A DNA stretch of 39,184 nucleotides from a virus. Position 1 is the first letter of the stretch. The number at the start of each line of letters is the position of its first letter. This document shows positions 941-36,794 of this stretch, in pieces. The translations under genes and the position numbers were made by a program. Below the pieces are notes generated by a model. It did no database searches, was not told where the DNA came from, and worked only from the letters and a program-made list of their open reading frames with translations. The stretch lies in UHGV virus genome UHGV-1367746; one strand, given 5' to 3'.

Positions 941-2707
941 CTAGTGAAACGTAACGTAGGCCCCTAGTCCCAGCTCGTCGTCCGTATCGTGAGTTACTCG
1001 GACCCCATTGTCCCAGAACTCAGTGTGGATGGACTCGAAGCCTTTCCGTGGGTTCTCCATCTGTTCCTCCAGCCACTCCTCAGTGACTTCACGTTCGCCT
1101 TTGTTGGCATCCTTAGCCATAGACTCAACGAAGAACTGTACACCGATAGCCAGCGCATCAAGTCGGTCATCGTGTGCCAAGGCTCCACGTTCACGAGAGA
1201 TACGGGTCATCTGGTAGAAGAGAGAGTAGATAGGGTTACGAACACCATCCTTATCAGAGGCTGACTGGTAGTCTTGGACGATAGCAGCAGCGTTAACGAT
1301 AAGTCTGTGAGACCCCATGATAGGCTCCAGAACGTCACAGATGCGGAGTTCCTTCTGACCCTTACTCTTCACTTCAGTTACAGCCGCAGGATGGATACGG
1401 GCCGCTACAGGCTTGAATAACTCAAGGTACATACCATCACCGAAGTTACCCTCAATGACGTATTCGTTGACCTTCCACTTACGACCAATCTTAGCCAGAG
1501 CTTCCAGAGTAGAGTCTTCATAACCTCCACGCATACCACCAACTTCCATAGCGAAGATGTAGCCGTTGAGCTGGTATAGTACCGCATATCCAGTTTCATC
1601 CTTACCACGACCACTAGGGTCAATGACCAGAATCTTCTGGGTGTACGAGCTGAAGGCAGAACCTACAGTCTGATACGTGTGGTATGAGTCACCCATGAGT
1701 CCAACGTTAGGAACGTCCTCACGCTTGTTCTGAGGGTTAGGAAGCCATTGGTAGACCATTGGGCTAGACGCTGGGTCCAAGTCTGCTACGATAAGGTCAC
1801 GGAGCTTCAGAGGGTACTTCTCGGCATCACTCAGGTTAGGGTTAAGCATGAACTGTAGAGCGAAGCCAGCTTTACCATAAGACAGCTCACGTTCCTTCAG
1901 GTCCGTATCATCGAATCGTACTTCATCGGTAGGACGCCAGTAGAAGGACTCAGGGTCCTCTTCCAGCTCTGCCTGAAGCATCGGTGCCAGACGGTCGCCG
2001 TAAGACTGCCAGTCCTTCTTATCACGTGGATAACGAGCAGGCCAGATAGTAGTGGTGTATCCACGGCCTTCCAGCTCACGATACAAGGTCATCTCGTTCT
2101 GAGGAGTACCCAGATAGATGATTGTACCTCCCGGCTTCAGGATAGCGTCGAACTCTTTCACAAGCTCTGACAGACGGTCTCTGGCAGCCTGAGTCGCTGA
2201 GTTGTTCGGAACCTCCACGTCATCGGCAATCAGGATGTCAGCACGACTACCAGTCAACTGACCAGTGATACCAACAGACTTAACCGAAGGTGAGTGGTCT
2301 GGCTTGGCTGGCCCAACGTCGAAGCTAATAACCGCATCTCGCTGTCCCTGCTTAGGTTTGAGTTCCTGAAGCTGAGGCATGAGGTCGATGATTCGCTTGA
2401 TGAAGATGGAGTTCGCATCGGCTCGTTCCTTTGAGGCCGACACAATCATGAACTTCAAGTCTGGGTTGTTCCATAACTTCCAGACCACGAAACCACAGGT
2501 CAGAAACGACTTGCCGATACCACGGAAAGCCTGAAGGATGAAGCGGCGATTATCCCCAGCAGCCAGCTTCTTACACATATCTATCTGGCAGCGTGTTGGA
2601 ACCGGAAGGCTAAGAGCTTTCCAGAGAACGAAGATGAAGAATACGAAGTCGTCCCTCATCCTTCGGGTCATTTCTGCCTGTCTTTCAACAGGTGTTTTCT
2701 TAGACAT
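941..2707 (-). CDS. Terminase large subunit (T7 gp19-like, DNA maturase B)
   Basis: 588 aa; extended identity to remembered T7 gp19 ([96 protein letters not shown]). Confidence 0.95.
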
Positions 2708-3137
2708 AGAGTCCCTCCAGCATTAGGTCCCGGACAGAGATAGCCTCCTCTAAAGTAGGACGTGTTGTTCGCATATAGACATTCCCGCGTTTAACCTGAA
2801 TCCTATAACCATTCTGGTGACGGGTAACGCACTTCACTCCCGTCTTAGAGTCATAATGGCTACCCGTATTCCAAGTGTTCTCAGCGGCAGTAACGAGCCG
2901 TAAGTTACTTAAGGTATTATTGCTGGGGTTCCTGTCGATGTGATCTATTTGCATACCATGTGGTATAGGACCATTGGTTAGTTCCCATATCACGCGATGT
3001 GCCCGCTTACTGCCTAGACTTCGTGTCTGTACTATCCAATATCCCATCCGACTTAATGTCCCCACAGGCTTTCCAGTCCTAACGGAGACCAGACCGGATG
3101 GACTCGCCTGGTCCACTTTGTAGTAATCACTTAACAC
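2700..3137 (-). CDS. HNH homing endonuclease (free-standing)
   Basis: 145 aa; HNH motif region [41 protein letters not shown]; inserted between spanin and large terminase genes and overlapping both ends by a few nt. Confidence 0.85.
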
Positions 3138-12414: not shown

Positions 12415-13002
12415 TTAGCTATGACCTGTAGGTGTGCCTTTAGCAGCACTAATAGGTGCAGAACCACCAGAGCTTGAAGTCCCGGCGATAGACTTACCAG
12501 CAGCGTATCCCTGCATCCCGGCGCTGGCAACATTAAGTGCATGAGCCAGTGGGCTGGTCTTGATGATTCTACCTTGACCACGGATAGCAGACTTTGTGTT
12601 CTCAATGTTGGCGATACGGTTCCCGAAGATAGCCGCATAATCGCGGTTGTAACTTTCGGTAATCCCTGCTCGCTCTTTGACTGTATCTCCTTCTACCTGA
12701 CGTTCAATCCTGTCCATAGAGTTACCTTCCAGTCCGGACTCAGCCACCGCAGCTCGGACCATGCCCTGATTGCGGATACCGTTGAGCGTGGTCTCTGTCA
12801 GTTCAGCCATCTGCTGCTCCTTCAGGTCTCGCTCCTGCATCTTCAGGTTGGCGTCAGAGTAGTTCATCTGCTTAACCATTTCCTGAGCCTGTCGGTTCTG
12901 AGCGTCAATTGCTGCACCTTCGGCCTTGGCCTGCTGGGATGCGGACATAGTGGCCCCGGCTACAGCCATGATACCCATGCCGATACTTACGGGTTCACAC
13001 AT
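12415..13002 (-). CDS. Internal virion protein B (gp14-like)
   Basis: 195 aa; starts MC like T7 gp14; motifs LEGSSMDRI, NYRRDY.AIF, API.AAKGT.TG; synteny. Confidence 0.85.
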   Translation of the reverse strand: MCEPVSIGMGIMAVAGATMSASQQAKAEGAAIDAQNRQAQEMVKQMNYSDANLKMQERDLKEQQMAELTETTLNGIRNQGMVRAAVAESGLEGNSMDRIERQVEGDTVKERAGITESYNRDYAAIFGNRIANIENTKSAIRGQGRIIKTSPLAHALNVASAGMQGYAAGKSIAGTSSSGGSAPISAAKGTPTGHS

Positions 13003-13457
13003 ACGTCCTCCTTAGAGATAGTGAATAATTGAAAACGCTCACCAGTTACCGGGCTGATAGTCCAATCATCATGGAACTTAGCCCCAAGCAACTTCAAGAA
13101 TTTAATGTGAGACTTATTGCCTGACCACACGTAGTTCCAGATGGTCCCGTATTGGTCTAACATTAAGTCCCTGTACTCAGAGATACGCTTTATGAACTCT
13201 CGCTTCTCTTTAGGTCTCAGCTTGTGGACCAGACCAGAAGTCAAGAACCATACGTTATCCCCTTGGTTTCCACCATAGGCAAACACTTCACCTACACCGT
13301 TCGTTAAAACCACAGATGATGGGGATAGGTGCTTAAGCAGTCTCTCAGAGAGACCCACGGTTGACCCATAGTTTGCTTTGCACTCATTAACATCATCTGC
13401 TGAAAGATGCCACAGAAAGTAGTGGACATCTGGTTCCGTAGCCTTGCGAATATACAT
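12987..13457 (-). CDS. Internal virion / assembly protein (gp13-like by position)
   Basis: 156 aa ORF between tail tubular B and gp14 homologs, preceded by phage promoter; assignment by synteny only. Confidence 0.6.
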   Translation of the reverse strand: MYIRKATEPDVHYFLWHLSADDVNECKANYGSTVGLSERLLKHLSPSSVVLTNGVGEVFAYGGNQGDNVWFLTSGLVHKLRPKEKREFIKRISEYRDLMLDQYGTIWNYVWSGNKSHIKFLKLLGAKFHDDWTISPVTGERFQLFTISKEDVCVNP

Positions 13458-13486: not shown

Positions 13487-13509
13487 AGTCCCTATAGTGA
13501 TAGTTAAGG
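13487..13509 (-). promoter_or_regulatory. Phage RNAP promoter (phi13-like), +1 at 13492
   Basis: Minus-strand CCTTAACTATCACTATAGGGACT; flanked by 12-bp inverted repeat aagggcctatag / ctataggccctt. Confidence 0.75.
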
Positions 13510-15900: not shown

Positions 15901-16128
15901 TTAAATCATACTCATTAGGACGTATCCTTCAGCGATGTCACCAACGTCAGCAATGTGGACAACCTTACGCGCTACCTGTTGTCCAGTATACCCGTTGTCC
16001 CATTCATTCAGGATAAGCCAATCGCCAACCTTAAAGTCCCGGTCGTTAAGTCTCAGCTCTGCTGTCTTTAGACCTAGCTGTACCGGACCAAAGTGCTGGC
16101 GGTGAATCTTCAGGTTGTGACTAGCCAT
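15901..16128 (-). CDS. DUF3850 / ASCH-like small protein (accessory gene between tail tubular A and B)
   Basis: 75 aa; pattern H.LKI....F..V..G.KT.E.R.NDRDF.VGD.L.L.E.D...YTG matches my recollection of DUF3850 proteins; no T7 counterpart at this locus. Confidence 0.6.
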   Translation of the reverse strand: MASHNLKIHRQHFGPVQLGLKTAELRLNDRDFKVGDWLILNEWDNGYTGQQVARKVVHIADVGDIAEGYVLMSMI

Positions 16129-16694
16129 TAGTCCCTCCCGATGTCTGACATCATGTTGTAGCGACCAGTGTCCATCTCGTACTCCATAACCTGCTGATAG
16201 AGTTCTGCTTCCTGCTCACGAAGGTATAGCTCTGACTCTGGGCTACCGAAGAACTTAGCGTTGAACTCACGGCTAGCTTTAGTGACGATGTAGTCCCTGA
16301 AGACCACAGGCATCTCGGAGAATGGCTTCATCTCCACAAGCTCTACCGTGATAGGGGCAGTGAAAGTGGTTGACTGAGTGGACAGGTCGTACAGGTATCC
16401 ACCCATGTTGCTGTAGTAGCTGGTGGCCCCAGCAGTCATTACACGAAGGTATGACGGAAGGAATCGAATCCTATTGTCTTGGACATCAGGTGTCAGGACA
16501 GCAGCTTCGTTGATGTTAAAGTTCCAGCCTTTAGCTTGGACCTGACGATTGACACGATGCAGTATACGTTGAGCGTTCGAGACATCAGCGTTCCCCTCGT
16601 CAAGCTGTAGGACTGCTGGTTCACCGATAGCAGCTAACATATCGTTGATGGCGTCTAAGTCATCGTTAGCATTCAGTGGAATGTATTGAGCCAT
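16128..16694 (-). CDS. Tail tubular protein A (gp11-like)
   Basis: 188 aa; similarity to T7 gp11 (IGEP, NA.RIL...NRQ.Q..GW.FN, EMP..FR.YIVTKASR.FN..FFG.PE, MEYEMD.G.YNM). Confidence 0.9.
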   Translation of the reverse strand: MAQYIPLNANDDLDAINDMLAAIGEPAVLQLDEGNADVSNAQRILHRVNRQVQAKGWNFNINEAAVLTPDVQDNRIRFLPSYLRVMTAGATSYYSNMGGYLYDLSTQSTTFTAPITVELVEMKPFSEMPVVFRDYIVTKASREFNAKFFGSPESELYLREQEAELYQQVMEYEMDTGRYNMMSDIGRD

Positions 16695-16696
16695 TA

Positions 16697-17128
16697 CTAA
16701 TCTCCTTTAAGGTAGCGTATAGCGTTTGCAATATGCTCTGGATTCTCACTTAGGAGTCCTATGGCACAGTTGCACCTCTGACAAAGCACGCCTCGTATTT
16801 CACCAGTGGAGTGACTGTGGTCTACAGCCAGTGTTCTACCAGATGTCTCTACTGTTCGCGAGCAAATCTCACAGGCCCAACCACGAGACTCCATAAGGGA
16901 GAACCACTCGTCATATGTCATACCGAACGAGCTTTTAAGTTGGTAGCCTTTAAGTCTTTCCGCTGAGTATCGTGATTTGTTGGGAGCTTCCTCTCGTATG
17001 GCAGCCTGCCTTGAGTTCTCGCACTCTCGGCATCTGCTTCTGTATTTCTGTGTGCCCTTACATGTCCTGCCATTTGGCGTGAAAGACCCCAAGTCCTTCT
17101 CCGTGTGGCATCCTATACATACCTTCAT
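16697..17128 (-). CDS. HNH homing endonuclease (free-standing), immediately downstream of Tphi-like terminator
   Basis: HNH motif DHSHSTGEIRGVLCQRCNCAIG plus N-terminal Cys cluster; start placed at ATG 17128 with GGAGG 4 nt upstream because the longer ORF (to 17182) would run through the terminator hairpin. Confidence 0.8.
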   Translation of the reverse strand: MKVCIGCHTEKDLGSFTPNGRTCKGTQKYRSRCRECENSRQAAIREEAPNKSRYSAERLKGYQLKSSFGMTYDEWFSLMESRGWACEICSRTVETSGRTLAVDHSHSTGEIRGVLCQRCNCAIGLLSENPEHIANAIRYLKGD

Positions 17129-17138
17129 TAATCCTCCG

Positions 17139-17176
17139 AAAAAAAACCCCTCAAGCACCCGAAGGCACCCAAGGGG
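17139..17176 (-). terminator. Tphi-like terminator for phage RNAP (also intrinsic-terminator-like)
   Basis: Minus RNA CCCCUUGGGUGCC-UUCG-GGUGCUUGAGGGG followed by U8; closely resembles T7 Tphi (AACCCCTTGGGGCCTCTAAACGGGTCTTGAGGGGTTTTTTG) and sits right after the 10B stop. Confidence 0.8.
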
Positions 17177-17182
17177 TTTCAA

Positions 17183-18357
17183 TTAGTTGTTGGACTCAGC
17201 CAGTTTAGCGGCCCTGTTCGCAGCACGAGTACGCGCAGCTTTCTGTTGAGGAGTTAGAGTCTCCTCTTCAGGTACAGCCGCTACAGTAGCGACGTTAGGT
17301 TGGCTAAAGGCGCTTACATCGCTGGGCTGAAAACCAGTGCGCCCGCCGCTTCAGGACGCAGACCACCGTGACCCATAGCGTACTTACCAACAATCAGGTC
17401 ACCCTGAGCATCGACATCACGGTCACGTTCCAGCGCCAAGTCACGCAGTTTCACAGTACCCACAGCAGAACGGTGAGAGAACAGGCCCACAACGTTGTCA
17501 ATAGCAACTTTAACGTCGCCAGCAGTAGTCGCTGGGAATGCGTGTTTCTGACCGGAAGCGATAGTGATACCATCGGCACCACGGGTCTCACCAGCACCAC
17601 CCTGTACCAGATGCGGAACTTCAACAACAACGAAGCCCATCACGTTACGGATGTTACCAGTCTCTGGGTCAATCAGCGCAGCATAGTTAGCAGCGTTAGG
17701 CATCAGAGCCGCGAGGATTGCAGAGTAGTTGTCCGGTGTGGTGTAGAAGTAACGGTCGCCAGCAGGAACGTAGTTGGAGGTCAGCTTCGCACGAGCAATG
17801 GTCAGTTGACCGATGATTGCTTCGCCCAGTTTAGCCGGGGTGTCGAGGTCAGCTTTCTTACCAACTTGCAGTACGGAAGCAGTTCCAAGACCAGCGATGT
17901 TCTCGTTGGATGCAGCTGGGAGGTTACACAGGGTAGCCATTTCAGCCAGAACCGCACCATCAGCAGCGATAGCCAAAGCTTCACCCAACTGGTTGGAATA
18001 CTCACCAGCCACGTCGTAGTGGTTCATCGCGTCTTCAATGTCGAAAATCATCACATCGGCAGTCAGCAGACCATCAATGGTAATCACCTTCTCAGTATGT
18101 TTGATACCTTTACGCTTATCGGACAGTCGCTCACCCGGAGCCAGATACACACCAGAGGTGCGACCCATGACCGGGAACTGAGCAGACTTACCGTTCTGAA
18201 TGGTACGGACAATATGCTTGTCAGCAGTTACAGAGCGGCGAGTGAATGCGGTCAGGACTTCACCAGCAAATACCTTCAGGAACAACGCCAGAGCGTCGGA
18301 ACTGGATTTGCCTTTACCTTGGTCTGTACCAATTTTCTGACCCGGAACGTTTGCCAT
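17183..18357 (-). CDS. Minor capsid protein 10B produced by -1 ribosomal frameshift near the 3' end of 10A (predicted)
   Basis: Slippery G GUU UUC at 17329-17335 as in T7 gene 10; the -1 frame stays open for 48 codons to TAA at 17183-17185 just before the terminator. Confidence 0.55.
17314..18357 (-). CDS. Major capsid protein 10A
   Basis: 347 aa; very high similarity to T7 gp10A (LALFLKVF.GEVLTAF, KSAQFPV.GRT, KHTEKVITIDGLLTADV, DIEDAMNHYDV, YSAILAALMPNAANYAALIDPE.G.IRNVMGF.VVEVPHL, HRSAVGTVKLRDLALER, KYAMGHGGLRPEAAGA). Confidence 0.95.
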   Translation of the reverse strand: MANVPGQKIGTDQGKGKSSSDALALFLKVFAGEVLTAFTRRSVTADKHIVRTIQNGKSAQFPVMGRTSGVYLAPGERLSDKRKGIKHTEKVITIDGLLTADVMIFDIEDAMNHYDVAGEYSNQLGEALAIAADGAVLAEMATLCNLPAASNENIAGLGTASVLQVGKKADLDTPAKLGEAIIGQLTIARAKLTSNYVPAGDRYFYTTPDNYSAILAALMPNAANYAALIDPETGNIRNVMGFVVVEVPHLVQGGAGETRGADGITIASGQKHAFPATTAGDVKVAIDNVVGLFSHRSAVGTVKLRDLALERDRDVDAQGDLIVGKYAMGHGGLRPEAAGALVFSPAM

Positions 18358-18459: not shown

Positions 18460-18482
18460 TCTCCCTATAGTGATAGTTTAGT
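18460..18482 (-). promoter_or_regulatory. Phage RNAP promoter (phi10-like, capsid gene), +1 at 18465
   Basis: Minus-strand ACTAAACTATCACTATAGGGAGACCA; -7 to +8 identical to T7 phi10 (CACTATAGGGAGACCA); 5' leader can form a stem. Confidence 0.85.
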
Positions 18483-23794: not shown

Positions 23795-24193
23795 TTACTC
23801 CTGTTTAAATTGTCCGTACTTCTTGTCAGACGTTAAGTTTATACACATAGAGGTCTTGACTCTAACCTCTTCAGTGAACGGTATAAGCCAGAGGAAATCC
23901 TGATAAACAACCGCTAGTAGGTCGATGTCTCCAGGACTGTAAGTCGGCTTACCACATCCTCCCAGCCTTACCTGTATGCTATTACAGTTCTTCAGCTTCG
24001 TTCCGGTCTTGACCTGAACCCTCGTAAGGGTCCCGTCTATATCGACCACCAAGTCTGCCTTTGACTGCGTGAATGCTGGGAGGAACACTTGATGCCCATT
24101 GGCTGTCAGCCTAAAGCTTGCATATAGCTCACTAGCAGCACCAGTGAAGTGCTGGGACTTTCCGTCAATGGCATTCTTTCCACGTTGGTCCAA
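23795..24193 (-). CDS. Hypothetical protein, possible PD-(D/E)xK-type nuclease (gene 5.3 position); predicted TTG start
   Basis: ORF continues from DNAP 3' overlap; GGAGGG RBS 5 nt upstream of TTG at 24193; motif D-x-D...VQVK suggestive of a restriction-endonuclease-like fold (weak inference); ORF-track ATG start at 24307 would overlap DNAP by 143 nt. Confidence 0.45.
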   Translation of the reverse strand: MDQRGKNAIDGKSQHFTGAASELYASFRLTANGHQVFLPAFTQSKADLVVDIDGTLTRVQVKTGTKLKNCNSIQVRLGGCGKPTYSPGDIDLLAVVYQDFLWLIPFTEEVRVKTSMCINLTSDKKYGQFKQE

Positions 24194-26336
24194 TCTTACC
24201 CTCCGTATCAAGCTCACACTTGAAGTTATAAAAACGTCCGACCTCACGCATTGCTTCTTGTGCAATACGGACGACTTCTTCGGCAATCTCCTGAGTACGA
24301 CACGCAATCTGCAATTCGTCGTGAATCCAAGCCATTAGCGCAAAGTCCCCATCCCAACCGTTACCATAACCAGCCTCCTCAAGTTTCTTCTCCGTCAGAA
24401 CCATCCAGTGCTTACAGACTACCGCACCATCACCTTGAAGTAATGCGTTCAGTGCTGAGTGCGGCGACCGGATGTGGATACGGCGACCATCAAGTCCACG
24501 CAACCAACGGCGTTTCCACTTGACGATATTCTCACCGTCCACCCACTTAGAGTCTGAGATTAACGTATTACTCACAGCTTCCCTGAGGTCTTTGATGGCT
24601 GGTGTACCCTCAATGAATTTCTTCATGAGAGCTGAACCTTCCTTCTTCCCACCGCCTACTATCAGTCCAATCTTAGCGGCCCCTGCACCATACAGGAACG
24701 CATAGATGAACGTCTTAGCGTTGTCACGGAAAGCATCATGGTCGTGGCTCGACTTATCGCGTGGGACGTTAGGTGCTAACCCAGCGTTTACTGCGTTGGC
24801 CCAGTGGATGTCACCTTCGACCACAGTCTTCGCATATGCACCACCATCAAACGGAGCCGCTCTGTTCCCAAGACAACGAAGCTCAAGACCTGAAGCATCC
24901 ACACCCACTTGAATCCAAGGGTCTGGCTTACCATCCGTCTTGTTCCAAGCTGCACCGAAAGCACCACGGCAAATCTCACCATACGGAGCACCGTTAGCAG
25001 GGACCTGAGCCATGTTTGGTGAACTGTGAGTCGCACGTCCGGTTACTGCCCCGCATGGGTTGATTGAACCGTGCATACGTCCGTCTGGACCTACAAGTTT
25101 CAACCATGCGTTCTTACCTTCAGCCGCCTGACCTATGCGCTTCTGGACTACCAGATACTCACGGACCAGCTCTACGCAAGCCTGAGCCTCTGCGTCTGGC
25201 AACTTAACGTGTTCTAACGTCTCGTCATCGACTACAGGTTTCCCTGTGTCAGTGAAGTCCACAGGCTCCCAGCCCCGCTCCATCAAGACTTTCGCTAAGT
25301 GGTCTCCGCTTCCCGGATTAAACTCAACGTAGGTGATAGGTGTGAACGGTGCTCCCTCCATCGTGTCTCGCGTATCGCGTTCACAAGGTTCAAGACCTAA
25401 GCGTTGAGCTTTGTTCTTCGGCTTCTTAAAGATGCCACCTACCTTAGGGTACACGACTCGCGGATACTTCGGAAGGTCCTTGCCTGTCCGTGGGTGCTTG
25501 AAGAACTCCTTGCCTCCCTTTGGTGCGTACCAGCTACCGAAAGTCGAACGCAGCTTGTCCAGCAACTCTGCACGTTTGACGGTGAGTTCACGATATAAGC
25601 CTTCGACCATCTCGATGTTCATCGGATATCCGTTACGTTCCATCTTCGCACAGGTCCACGCAGCATCATGTTCCAGACGCAACGCATAAATCTGGTCGAA
25701 AGCGAACTGTTCAGACTGGAAGTAATACTTGTCAGTCAGGAACTTCTTGAACAAAGCCAGTGTTACCACAACGTCTTGAACGTTATAGTCCAGCATCTCC
25801 TGAGACGGGAACAACCATTCGTCCCCAGCCTTATATTTGATACCTTCAGCCTTGCATTTGGCAACGTAATCATGCTTGTACTCACCCTTCATCTCACCAA
25901 GACGATAACCCCAAGCCTCAAGAGACTGGCGTCCCATCATCTGAGGCGGCAGACGACCAGCTTTCACCGCTCCCATGTCTGAGAACTTGATGTTTGGATA
26001 CATCAAGCGTCCCAGCACCAATGTATCAATCATCTTGTGTTTCGGGAAGTTAAAACGTTTCCCAAAGTACAGACGCTTCAGCTTGTCGATAGCCGGTACG
26101 TCATAGTTGATACCGTTGTGAAATACCAGCATACCATCAGGCGATGCGGCAATCTCTTCCACTTTATGAACATACTCTTTGAAGCCACCGACGATACCGA
26201 CCATCGGAGCTACCCCATACTTAAGGGTCTCATTCGACTCGGCGTTAATCAGGACCCCACAGTGAAACTGGGAGACTGTATCAAGGAGACCGTTGGTCTC
26301 GATGTCAGAACCCCAGATACTCTTAAGGTCAAACAT
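24165..26336 (-). CDS. DNA polymerase (gp5-like, family A) with thioredoxin-binding loop
   Basis: Strong similarity to T7 gp5 throughout (DIE.N.LL, YNVQDVVVT, SWY.PKGG.E.F.HPRTGK.LPKYPR, KVGGIFKKPKNKAQR, GAVTGRATH, PWVQ.G.DASGLELRCL, DNAKTFIY.FLYGAG, VHDE.Q, LDTEGK.GP.W..CH); start set at ATG 26336 (GGAGG RBS) rather than the ORF-track start 26372. Confidence 0.95.
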   Translation of the reverse strand: MFDLKSIWGSDIETNGLLDTVSQFHCGVLINAESNETLKYGVAPMVGIVGGFKEYVHKVEEIAASPDGMLVFHNGINYDVPAIDKLKRLYFGKRFNFPKHKMIDTLVLGRLMYPNIKFSDMGAVKAGRLPPQMMGRQSLEAWGYRLGEMKGEYKHDYVAKCKAEGIKYKAGDEWLFPSQEMLDYNVQDVVVTLALFKKFLTDKYYFQSEQFAFDQIYALRLEHDAAWTCAKMERNGYPMNIEMVEGLYRELTVKRAELLDKLRSTFGSWYAPKGGKEFFKHPRTGKDLPKYPRVVYPKVGGIFKKPKNKAQRLGLEPCERDTRDTMEGAPFTPITYVEFNPGSGDHLAKVLMERGWEPVDFTDTGKPVVDDETLEHVKLPDAEAQACVELVREYLVVQKRIGQAAEGKNAWLKLVGPDGRMHGSINPCGAVTGRATHSSPNMAQVPANGAPYGEICRGAFGAAWNKTDGKPDPWIQVGVDASGLELRCLGNRAAPFDGGAYAKTVVEGDIHWANAVNAGLAPNVPRDKSSHDHDAFRDNAKTFIYAFLYGAGAAKIGLIVGGGKKEGSALMKKFIEGTPAIKDLREAVSNTLISDSKWVDGENIVKWKRRWLRGLDGRRIHIRSPHSALNALLQGDGAVVCKHWMVLTEKKLEEAGYGNGWDGDFALMAWIHDELQIACRTQEIAEEVVRIAQEAMREVGRFYNFKCELDTEGKIGPTWKECH

Positions 26337-29085: not shown

Positions 29086-29533
29086 TGTACACCACCAATT
29101 CTACGACCACCAGATTCAGGTGCTGGGTGAAGCGTTGTGCGTCCGTGGTGTGCATCTGGAGACGCTTATGGTTGAAGACGTGTGAGTTGCTAATCTTCAC
29201 GTAAACTTCTTCAGGCTTTCCGTGGACGATGAACGTCTGACCTACACCAATCTTGTCGATTGTCAGGACTTCACGCTTCACAGTCACAGGCGGTACGCTA
29301 GAAGCTGGCAGGACCTGAGGCTGTTCAACAACTTCTACACTGTAGGTCTCGTGACCATTCCAGCTGGTAGTCTCCCCAATGTAATCCTCAGGATGCCACC
29401 CCTTCTCCACAATTACGCTATGGTCTTCTCGCTTTTCAAAAACAGCATCAGTGAATTGGGGGTTATTCATCAGTGTGTTCTTTGAGAATCTGTAACGTGT
29501 TCCAACTTCAAGGTCTTTACAGGTAATCATCAC
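29075..29533 (-). CDS. Hypothetical protein (ORFan inserted between endonuclease I and lysozyme genes)
   Basis: 152 aa ORF filling the gene 3 / gene 3.5 junction, which is not occupied in T7; no recognised motif. Confidence 0.6.
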   Translation of the reverse strand: MMITCKDLEVGTRYRFSKNTLMNNPQFTDAVFEKREDHSVIVEKGWHPEDYIGETTSWNGHETYSVEVVEQPQVLPASSVPPVTVKREVLTIDKIGVGQTFIVHGKPEEVYVKISNSHVFNHKRLQMHTTDAQRFTQHLNLVVVELVVYNGK

Positions 29534-29982
29534 TTAACTCCTTTCTTCTTAGGGATGAGGATGCCGGAAGGAAGACGTACAGTCACCTCCCTCAGCCACT
29601 CAACTGGGATAAACTTGTCGGCAAACTTAAAGCCGTTCTTTTCGCACCATGCGCCATACGTGGTCGGAGACCCTTTGTATAACTTGGAGCGGGAACTTGA
29701 GAACACGAACCGTATGTCCAGCTCAGGGTGTTGTTCTCGTACCAGAAGGTGCTTCTTACGGTCATCACTATCGAAGATACCTTTGGTCTCCACGATGATA
29801 CCGTTAGGAAGGATAAAGTCTGGTGTGTACTTGTGGTCGGAAGCCGGAATCACATAGTTGATATAATGGCTTTCGTACTCCGCTTTGACGCCGTTCTGTT
29901 CCAGCCACTGCTGGTTCTTGGCTTCAAGTCCAGAGCGGTAGGCACCCACAGAGTGCCCCCGTTTTGCAGACCATTGGGCCAT
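29530..29982 (-). CDS. Endonuclease I (Holliday junction resolvase, gp3-like)
   Basis: 150 aa; strong similarity to T7 gp3 (GAFRSGLE, YVIPAS.H.YTPDF.LPNGI.VETKG...SDDRKKHLL.REQHPELDIR.VFSSSR.KLYKGSPT.YG..CEK.G.KFADK.IP.EW). Confidence 0.95.
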   Translation of the reverse strand: MAQWSAKRGHSVGAYRSGLEAKNQQWLEQNGVKAEYESHYINYVIPASDHKYTPDFILPNGIIVETKGIFDSDDRKKHLLVREQHPELDIRFVFSSSRSKLYKGSPTTYGAWCEKNGFKFADKFIPVEWLREVTVRLPSGILIPKKKGVK

Positions 29983-36771: not shown

Positions 36772-36794
36772 GAGTCCTATAGTGATAGTTAAGT
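36772..36794 (-). promoter_or_regulatory. Phage RNAP promoter located directly upstream of the RNAP gene, +1 at 36777
   Basis: Minus-strand ACTTAACTATCACTATAGGACTC, 75 nt upstream of gene 1 ATG; full match to family core CACTATAGG. Confidence 0.65.

Follow-up and report, generated by a model that had tools for sequence, protein, structure and literature searches.

The closest described counterpart of the gene analysed here is F-CphI, the product of ORF177 of cyanophage S-PM2, which has been shown experimentally to be a free-standing homing endonuclease and which founded the 'DHHRN' family (Zeng, Bonocora & Shub 2009; Fang et al. 2018, PMC6083498). Mutations of its residues D101, H102, H104, R110 and N118 abolished cleavage, and an endonuclease clade, with the motif placed C-terminally, was distinguished from a resolvase clade, in which the motif is N-terminal (PMC6083498). 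Within the Endo VII-motif family, this analysis identified no other homing endonuclease that has been characterised by experiment. In T7-like phages, Endo VII-type paralogues are routinely annotated at intergenic sites other than the one considered here, and no specific report of a nuclease gene between genes 10 and 11 of these phages turned up in the literature that we searched. Family and lifestyle are known; what is new is the present lineage and its landing site directly behind the terminator Tphi.

The window, by which we mean the whole stretch of DNA that was analysed (39,184 nucleotides, virus genome UHGV-1367746), represents an entire T7-like genome (about 39 kb) read in reverse, with all genes on the minus strand; the scaffold is also recorded as a metagenome assembly. 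It is a Kayfunavirus with 93-97% identity to phages EcoDS1, ST31, TM1, EFA-1 and Penshu1. One of these closest relatives, recorded as 'Enterococcus phage EFA-1' (L018, MT350292), is a Kayfunavirus that is flagged UNVERIFIED_ORG, and the host label of this record (Enterococcus) is probably wrong. The gene under study, which encodes a protein of 143 aa, occupies 17128..16697 of the minus strand, with its ATG at 17128-17126 and the stop codon TAG at 16699-16697. The initial annotation had the coordinates and length of this ORF right, as well as its position between the capsid gene terminator and gene 11, which is read directly from the sequence; the strand is what had to be amended.

The upstream neighbour is gene 10A, encoding the major capsid protein (18357..17314, minus strand; Pfam Gp10A-like, E=4.7e-105). 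The slippery site GGTTTTC (17335..17329, minus strand) precedes its stop codon, and frameshift translation with a -1 shift at this site yields 10B, a protein of 391 aa ending with TAA at 17185-17183; the same 10A/10B frameshift feature is annotated in Penshu1 and EcoDS1. The end of 10B lies 2 nt before the hairpin of a Tphi-like intrinsic terminator (17139..17180, minus strand), which consists of a 17-bp hairpin with a UUCG loop (17180..17143) and a U8 tract (17146..17139). Its free energy is -29.1 kcal/mol with z = -2.7 by RNA folding, and it was also picked up by a terminator scan. In EcoDS1 the element carries the annotation phiTE, and in Penshu1 it is likewise annotated as a terminator. 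Relatives have an identical hairpin whether or not they carry the insert, although the U-tract and its next base read U8-C here and U6-G in the empty alleles; the 3' arm and U-run match those of the T7-group terminators. The features of a class I, Tphi-type terminator are present, namely a stable, G+C-rich hairpin with a U-run downstream of gene 10. An Rfam search over the whole window matched no family.

A single C separates the U-tract from GGAGG (17133..17137, minus strand), the Shine-Dalgarno sequence of the endonuclease gene as read from the sequence, which is followed by ATTA and the nuclease ATG, so that the ribosome-binding site begins one base after the U-tract, as had been noted before. 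RNA folding of 17133-17196 (minus strand) places the terminator hairpin inside a weak 5-bp pairing, formed by the GG of this Shine-Dalgarno sequence and AUU on one side and by GAGUC(C) from the end of 10B on the other. At the other end of the ORF, AAGGAG (16702..16707, minus strand; likewise read from the sequence), the Shine-Dalgarno sequence of gene 11, lies within the last codons of the nuclease ORF, whose stop codon is found 2 nt ahead of the gene 11 ATG at 16694. Gene 11, the downstream neighbour that would be co-transcribed with the nuclease gene, encodes tail tubular protein A (16128..16694, minus strand; Pfam Tube, E=3e-46). All orthologous loci keep the start and a purine-rich Shine-Dalgarno sequence (GGAGG in most, GAGG in L022), and the orthologous nuclease ORFs extend over the start of gene 11, with overlaps of 4-29 nt. 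A mechanically called ORF of 161 aa starting from TTG at 17182 was rejected, since this TTG falls within the terminator hairpin and the orthologues all begin with the MK.C codon.

The initial annotation had called the product a second HNH endonuclease, to be checked by an HNH profile search. In Pfam, at a threshold of E <= 0.01, the only matches reported for the 143-aa protein were Endonuclease_7 (PF02945, 'Recombination endonuclease VII'; E=1.6e-19, residues 64-141 of 143) and a weak one to His_Me_b4a2; the canonical HNH families (HNH, HNH_2-5) were not matched at this threshold. PHROG 'endonuclease VII' families also match, with E-values down to 2.4e-32, and NCBIfam gave no match for this protein nor for the window's two other nucleases. 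The protein is a His-Me-finger nuclease and HNH-like in that sense, but the profile that identifies it is Endonuclease_7 and not that of an HNH family. The word 'second' is accurate, as the window also encodes a 145-aa HNH_3 endonuclease (3137..2700, minus strand; Pfam HNH_3, E=6.7e-21; phrog_99, E=4.8e-40). In Hafnia phage Ca a homing endonuclease gene (HEG) occupies the position that the HNH_3 gene has in the window (2700-3137), and a variant with a 397-bp deletion of the Hafnia phage gene has been reported (PMC8861465). Furthermore, a 170-aa ORF downstream of the DNA polymerase gene (23795-24307, minus strand) matches PDDEXK_5 of the PD-(D/E)XK endonuclease family (E=4.9e-10) and may be a third optional nuclease gene. 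The window does not have a gene 13.5-type nuclease copy; gene 13 (13457..12987) runs directly into gene 14.

The protein has two parts. Residues 2-39 (17012..17125, minus strand) form a beta4-alpha2-like zinc ribbon with C4, C7, C33 and C36, matched by His_Me_b4a2 at E=1.2e-4, which is below the curated cut-off, and modelled with a pLDDT of about 90; this ribbon is presumed to be a DNA-binding module. Residues 64-141, the Pfam Endonuclease_7 stretch (16706..16939, minus strand), form the beta-beta-alpha-metal nuclease domain, in which C86-x2-C89 and C116-x2-C119 are the zinc ligands and D103, H104, H106, R112 and N120, encoded at 16769-16822, are the catalytic residues (residues 103-124 read DHSHSTGEIRGVLCQRCNCAIG). 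The orthologue alignment shows no variation at the five catalytic residues or at C36, C86, C89, C116 and C119, and almost none at C4, C7 and C33. BLASTP aligned residues 2-141 with residues 10-139 of F-CphI (32% identity over 140 residues, E=5e-23), placing D103, H104, H106, R112 and N120 on D101, H102, H104, R110 and N118. The AlphaFold (AF2) model has a pLDDT of 81, and its top Foldseek matches are Hpy99I and T4 endonuclease VII, both with probability 1.0. In a phmmer search of the PDB, Hpy99I was the top match with both domains aligned (E=3.3e-10), followed by residues 14-69 of T4 endonuclease VII. The protein belongs to the F-CphI or 'DHHRN' (Endo VII-motif) family, which shares its fold superfamily with HNH.

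The name of the Pfam family and the alignment with residues 14-69 of T4 endonuclease VII could be taken to mean that the protein is a junction-resolving recombination enzyme like the latter. We consider this extremely improbable. Only the catalytic motif of T4 endonuclease VII aligns and its dimerisation part does not, and the nuclease motif is found in the C-terminal half behind the zinc ribbon, as in F-CphI and Hpy99I, which is the layout of the endonuclease clade (PMC6083498). The phage, moreover, already encodes endonuclease I, a T7-type resolvase (29982..29530, minus strand; Pfam E=1.7e-81), and about 60 relatives dispense with the gene. A restriction enzyme of the Hpy99I type was also considered and rejected: the neighbours are capsid and tail genes without an adjacent methyltransferase, and CGWCG is not depleted, with 53 sites in the window against 61.5 +/- 7.2 expected. 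Since the window carries these 53 sites, the specificity of Hpy99I cannot apply to its own nuclease.

The Endonuclease_7 match, the PHROG matches and the purifying selection on the orthologues together indicate that the ORF is not a chance ORF. Comparison of the window's allele with that of the metagenomic phage L010 gave a dN/dS of about 0.08, with synonymous sites near saturation (pS 0.65), and from such sequence comparison the gene is judged to be under purifying selection. These values bear on a further explanation, according to which the ORF is what remains of an old insertion, decaying and without function, or else an HNH accessory factor for DNA packaging. A deleted copy does exist in Penshu1, and some phages use HNH proteins with their terminase (discussed in PMC8861465); yet the window's ORF is intact, its catalytic and zinc-binding residues are invariant and its dN/dS is low, while the gene is situated 14 kb from the terminase genes and T7-like relatives package their DNA without it. 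We therefore regard both variants of this explanation as very unlikely. The base composition of the nuclease gene (G+C 0.488, against 0.499 for the genome) was unremarkable when G+C and GC3 were used to check for a foreign origin.

The initial annotation had proposed that the gene is a mobile-element-like insertion and that it should be compared with relatives lacking it, and this comparison bears the proposal out: almost no close relative has the insert, its boundaries are sharp, and it occurs at the same site in several genera. A 2.5-kb query around the locus was covered to at least 80% by 61 records of the phage collection, in two pieces from which the 432-nt gene is missing, and about 60 sequenced Kayfunavirus isolates have the empty site. 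Alignments against EcoDS1, ST31, TM1 and EFA-1 delimit an inserted segment of ~429 nt (16712..17140, minus strand) that replaces one G between GGGGTTTTTT and CTTAAAG, the precise empty site in these four phages being GGGGTTTTTT-G-CTTAAAGTGAGAGGAGACTTATG. The 23-mer CTTGAGGGGTTTTTTGCTTAAAG of the empty site is common to Kayfunavirus and Teseptimavirus. Across about 5 kb of aligned flanks, no fixed differences between carriers and non-carriers were found outside the insert.

Two further states of the locus were encountered. Penshu1 (L001, MK903281; 1772-1960) has a nuclease remnant in which an out-of-frame deletion of 247 nt between GAAATAC repeats has taken out the catalytic motif. In its record this debris is annotated as a 'hypothetical protein' of 40 aa and as a 19-residue N-terminal extension of the 'tail tubular protein A'; the true gene 11 start is that of the conserved MAQYIPL. 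ASO2B (L003, about 1766-1876) and its relatives have, at the junction corresponding to window positions 16712-17140, a different filler of 95 nt with its own AAGGAGG and an ORF for a hydrophobic peptide of 29 aa (MVLIYTGLALFVLFWAYLLSSSPSSAYDR). This allele is also seen in records whose match length equals that of ASO2B, such as Mt1B1_P3 and vB_EcoP_F. The occurrence of a different filler at the same site shows this junction to be a recurrent landing pad.

Intact members of the lineage were found in metagenomic data. A search of 5.8 billion proteins returned seven clusters of close orthologues, all metagenomic, with 65-97% identity. All six of the clusters that were looked up (P0001-P0005 and P0007; 64-97% identity) lie directly behind the terminator, in the space that separates genes 10 and 11, with nuclease ORFs that begin 9-20 nt past the U-tract and end on or over the gene 11 start. 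The carriers at this site comprise Kayfunavirus, Teseptimavirus and other T7-like phages, at least three groups: L012 is a Teseptimavirus with flanks 95% identical to those of EG1, whose site is empty, and L013, L022 and L023 represent further T7-like lineages, whose gp11 is 47-50% identical to that of the window. Among isolates the lineage is represented by a remnant only, that of Penshu1, which was the single copy at the Tphi/gene 11 junction in the phage collection; by tblastn, the 50,697 phage records contained no other copy above 60% identity. IMG/VR holds at least 533 members of the family, none of them above 50% identity, and the lineage is absent there. T7-like phages also have paralogues elsewhere, with 37-38% identity over the full length, in the intergenic spaces 13/14 and 18.5/19. 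The metagenomic Kayfunaviruses L004, L005, L006 and L007, which encode a 97%-identical endonuclease, have a further Endonuclease_7 gene after gene 13, and L004 additionally has an HNH_3 gene before gene 8.

The nuclease genes and their flanks have different histories. Between L010 and the window the flanks are 96-100% identical and the nuclease genes 78-86%. The nuclease of L023 is 73% identical to the window's and 61% to that of L022; for gp11 the corresponding values are 48% and 85%. In its nuclease gene the window resembles L004, with 7 mismatches over about 430 nt; its gene 11 differs from that of L004 at 38 of 567 positions, against 8 of 567 for ST31, which lacks the HEG. This adjacency of an L004-type nuclease gene and an ST31-like gene 11 places a recombination boundary at the 3' edge of the insert. 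No co-conversion tract shared with the closest HEG-carrying genomes was found; the sequence switches abruptly at the 3' junction instead. By these comparisons the nuclease tree is discordant with that of the flanking genes, a mosaic pattern of a kind described for phage HEGs generally (PMC10448857). Since the divergence of the nuclease between genera (64-73% aa identity) is similar to that of gp10 (67-71%), ancient vertical inheritance combined with frequent losses could account for part of the distribution.

As to expression, the Kayfunavirus promoter consensus matched the minus strand at 36785, 33473, 31709, 22308, 19487, 18481, 13508, 6231 and 845. The nearest upstream promoter able to drive the nuclease gene is phi10 (18460..18481, minus strand), an exact match to the phi10 of EcoDS1, and the next one downstream, found by the phage promoter scan, is phi13 (13487..13508, minus strand). 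The consensus scan found no phage promoter between 18481 and 13508, and no sigma-70-like site was found ahead of the nuclease ORF. With no promoter between Tphi and phi13, the nuclease gene, gene 11, a DUF3850 gene and gene 12 would all need read-through of the terminator; in T7, genes 11 and 12 depend on Tphi read-through (PMC2952870). The DUF3850/ASCH ('RNA-binding protein') gene encodes 75 aa and lies between genes 11 and 12 (15901-16128, minus strand). It is absent from L010, which is otherwise 96-100% identical and in which gene 12 comes directly after gene 11, and it is therefore another optional gene in the same read-through operon.

It had been suggested that dependence on read-through serves to keep the nuclease at a low level. 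The dependence itself holds, by inference from the promoter positions, but it is not special to the nuclease: as the essential genes 11 and 12 depend on read-through equally, it is not a nuclease-specific throttle. The level of the nuclease should be below that of gene 10. The accompanying statement that the insertion lies in the most highly transcribed region has to be revised, since the gene sits just past the terminator that ends this region. In the sequence of events that we propose, the phage RNA polymerase would transcribe the gene late, from phi10 and upstream promoters, and only on those molecules that read through Tphi, so that the nuclease would be carried on the same mRNAs as the essential genes 11 and 12. 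It would be translated from its own GGAGG and would supply or overlap the Shine-Dalgarno sequence of gene 11.

The locus has the traits of a free-standing HEG, being optional between conserved genes, with precise boundaries, presence/absence polymorphism, recurrence at one site and a discordant history. We estimate at about three in four the probability that the insert is such a gene, belonging to the Endo VII-motif family of which F-CphI is the type. Binding to DNA probably involves both the protein's zinc ribbon and its nuclease domain, as in Hpy99I and F-CphI. On co-infection, the enzyme would cut the HEG-less allele at or near the conserved junction of CTTGAGGGGTTTTTTG with CTTAAAG, and recombinational repair on the HEG-carrying template would copy the gene into the empty site; the carrier genome would be immune, the junction being split by the insertion. 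Cleavage and gene conversion are here what we infer, and so is the target, for which the insertion point and the lack of other fixed differences between carriers and non-carriers suggest the junction itself. Free-standing HEGs often cut within a neighbouring gene, some distance away, and the junction may for this reason not be the target.

A more specific version of the homing reading, which we put forward tentatively and with the odds somewhat against it, is that the homing site is the non-coding junction between Tphi and the gene 11 ribosome-binding site, that the element hops across genera via this regulatory element, and that its placement is self-protecting. By targeting conserved regulatory rather than coding sequence, one HEG lineage could move between T7-like genera. 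Its placement would protect it in that it would be transcribed only with the read-through obligatory for genes 11 and 12, and in that its 3' end contains the Shine-Dalgarno sequence of gene 11. If this is true, the read-through coupling and the embedded Shine-Dalgarno sequence would mean that neither silencing nor imprecise deletion is free for the phage, and the cost of imprecise deletion may explain why the Penshu1 remnant has kept both ends.

Several of these observations can also be read in favour of a domesticated nuclease that benefits the phage by cutting other DNA, be it that of related phages in the same cell (interference or marker exclusion), of the host or of a satellite, its fixed position being simply where such a gene is tolerated. 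Strong purifying selection, retention on the transcript of essential genes and the fact that Hpy99I, the nearest match among solved structures, is a restriction enzyme with sequence specificity would all agree with this, and HEG-like nucleases near essential phage genes have been discussed as drivers of competition and exchange (PMC10448857). We nonetheless think it unlikely. Hardly any isolate of the genus has the gene, and in Penshu1 it decays, a pattern that fits a selfish element better, and the finding of one lineage at exactly one junction across genera is what homing predicts. The two readings are compatible and not mutually exclusive.

The element interpreted here as a homing endonuclease gene is of an ordinary kind and reveals no new mechanism. 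It adds a well-documented case to the Endo VII-motif family, with empty, occupied and degenerate alleles in several genera, and it allows a concrete candidate target of 23 nt to be named, in a terminator junction whose sequence is carried by common T7 expression vectors as well. That the non-coding junction after a T7-type late terminator is a recurrent landing pad for optional genes matters for the annotation and engineering of T7-like phages; the N-terminal 'extension' of gene 11 in Penshu1, which is HEG debris, is an example on the side of annotation.

Compared with known systems, the gene resembles other optional phage nucleases. The T4 seg and mob HEGs and the Kayfunavirus HNH_3 HEG before the terminase gene are likewise optional small nuclease genes between conserved genes, and the T4 seg/mob HEGs and that of Hafnia phage Ca (PMC8861465) overlap neighbouring starts and have deletion variants seen in populations; the T4 seg/mob and Hafnia Ca genes, however, belong to other nuclease families (GIY-YIG, canonical HNH and HNH_3). 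The nucleases of EcoDS1 (gp13.5), Klebsiella phage P509 and Escherichia phage ECA2 are of the same family, with 37-38% identity over the full length, and their genes too are small optional ORFs wedged between conserved late genes. Genes of this type are placed between 13 and 14 or between 18.5 and 19, unlike the window's.

At the protein level, T4 endonuclease VII (gp49, 157 aa) has the catalytic, zinc-bound beta-beta-alpha-metal motif in common with the window protein, but it resolves junctions, and in it the motif stands at the N-terminus and a dimerisation domain at the C-terminus. Hpy99I (PDB 3FC3) shares more, as both its beta4-alpha2 zinc ribbon (76-113) and its beta-beta-alpha-Me domain (134-196) align; unlike the window protein it has an extra N-terminal domain of about 75 residues. 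F-CphI is alike in length (142 against 143 aa) and two-part architecture and aligns from end to end, with the D, H, H, R and N residues and both CxxC pairs conserved, and its gene is also free-standing between conserved phage genes. The two differ in their setting. F-CphI comes from a T4-like cyanomyovirus, the window's nuclease from a T7-like coliphage, and whereas the F-CphI site lies next to psbA, with immunity conferred via a group I intron ('collaborative homing'), the window's gene is found without an intron at the junction between a terminator and a ribosome-binding site.
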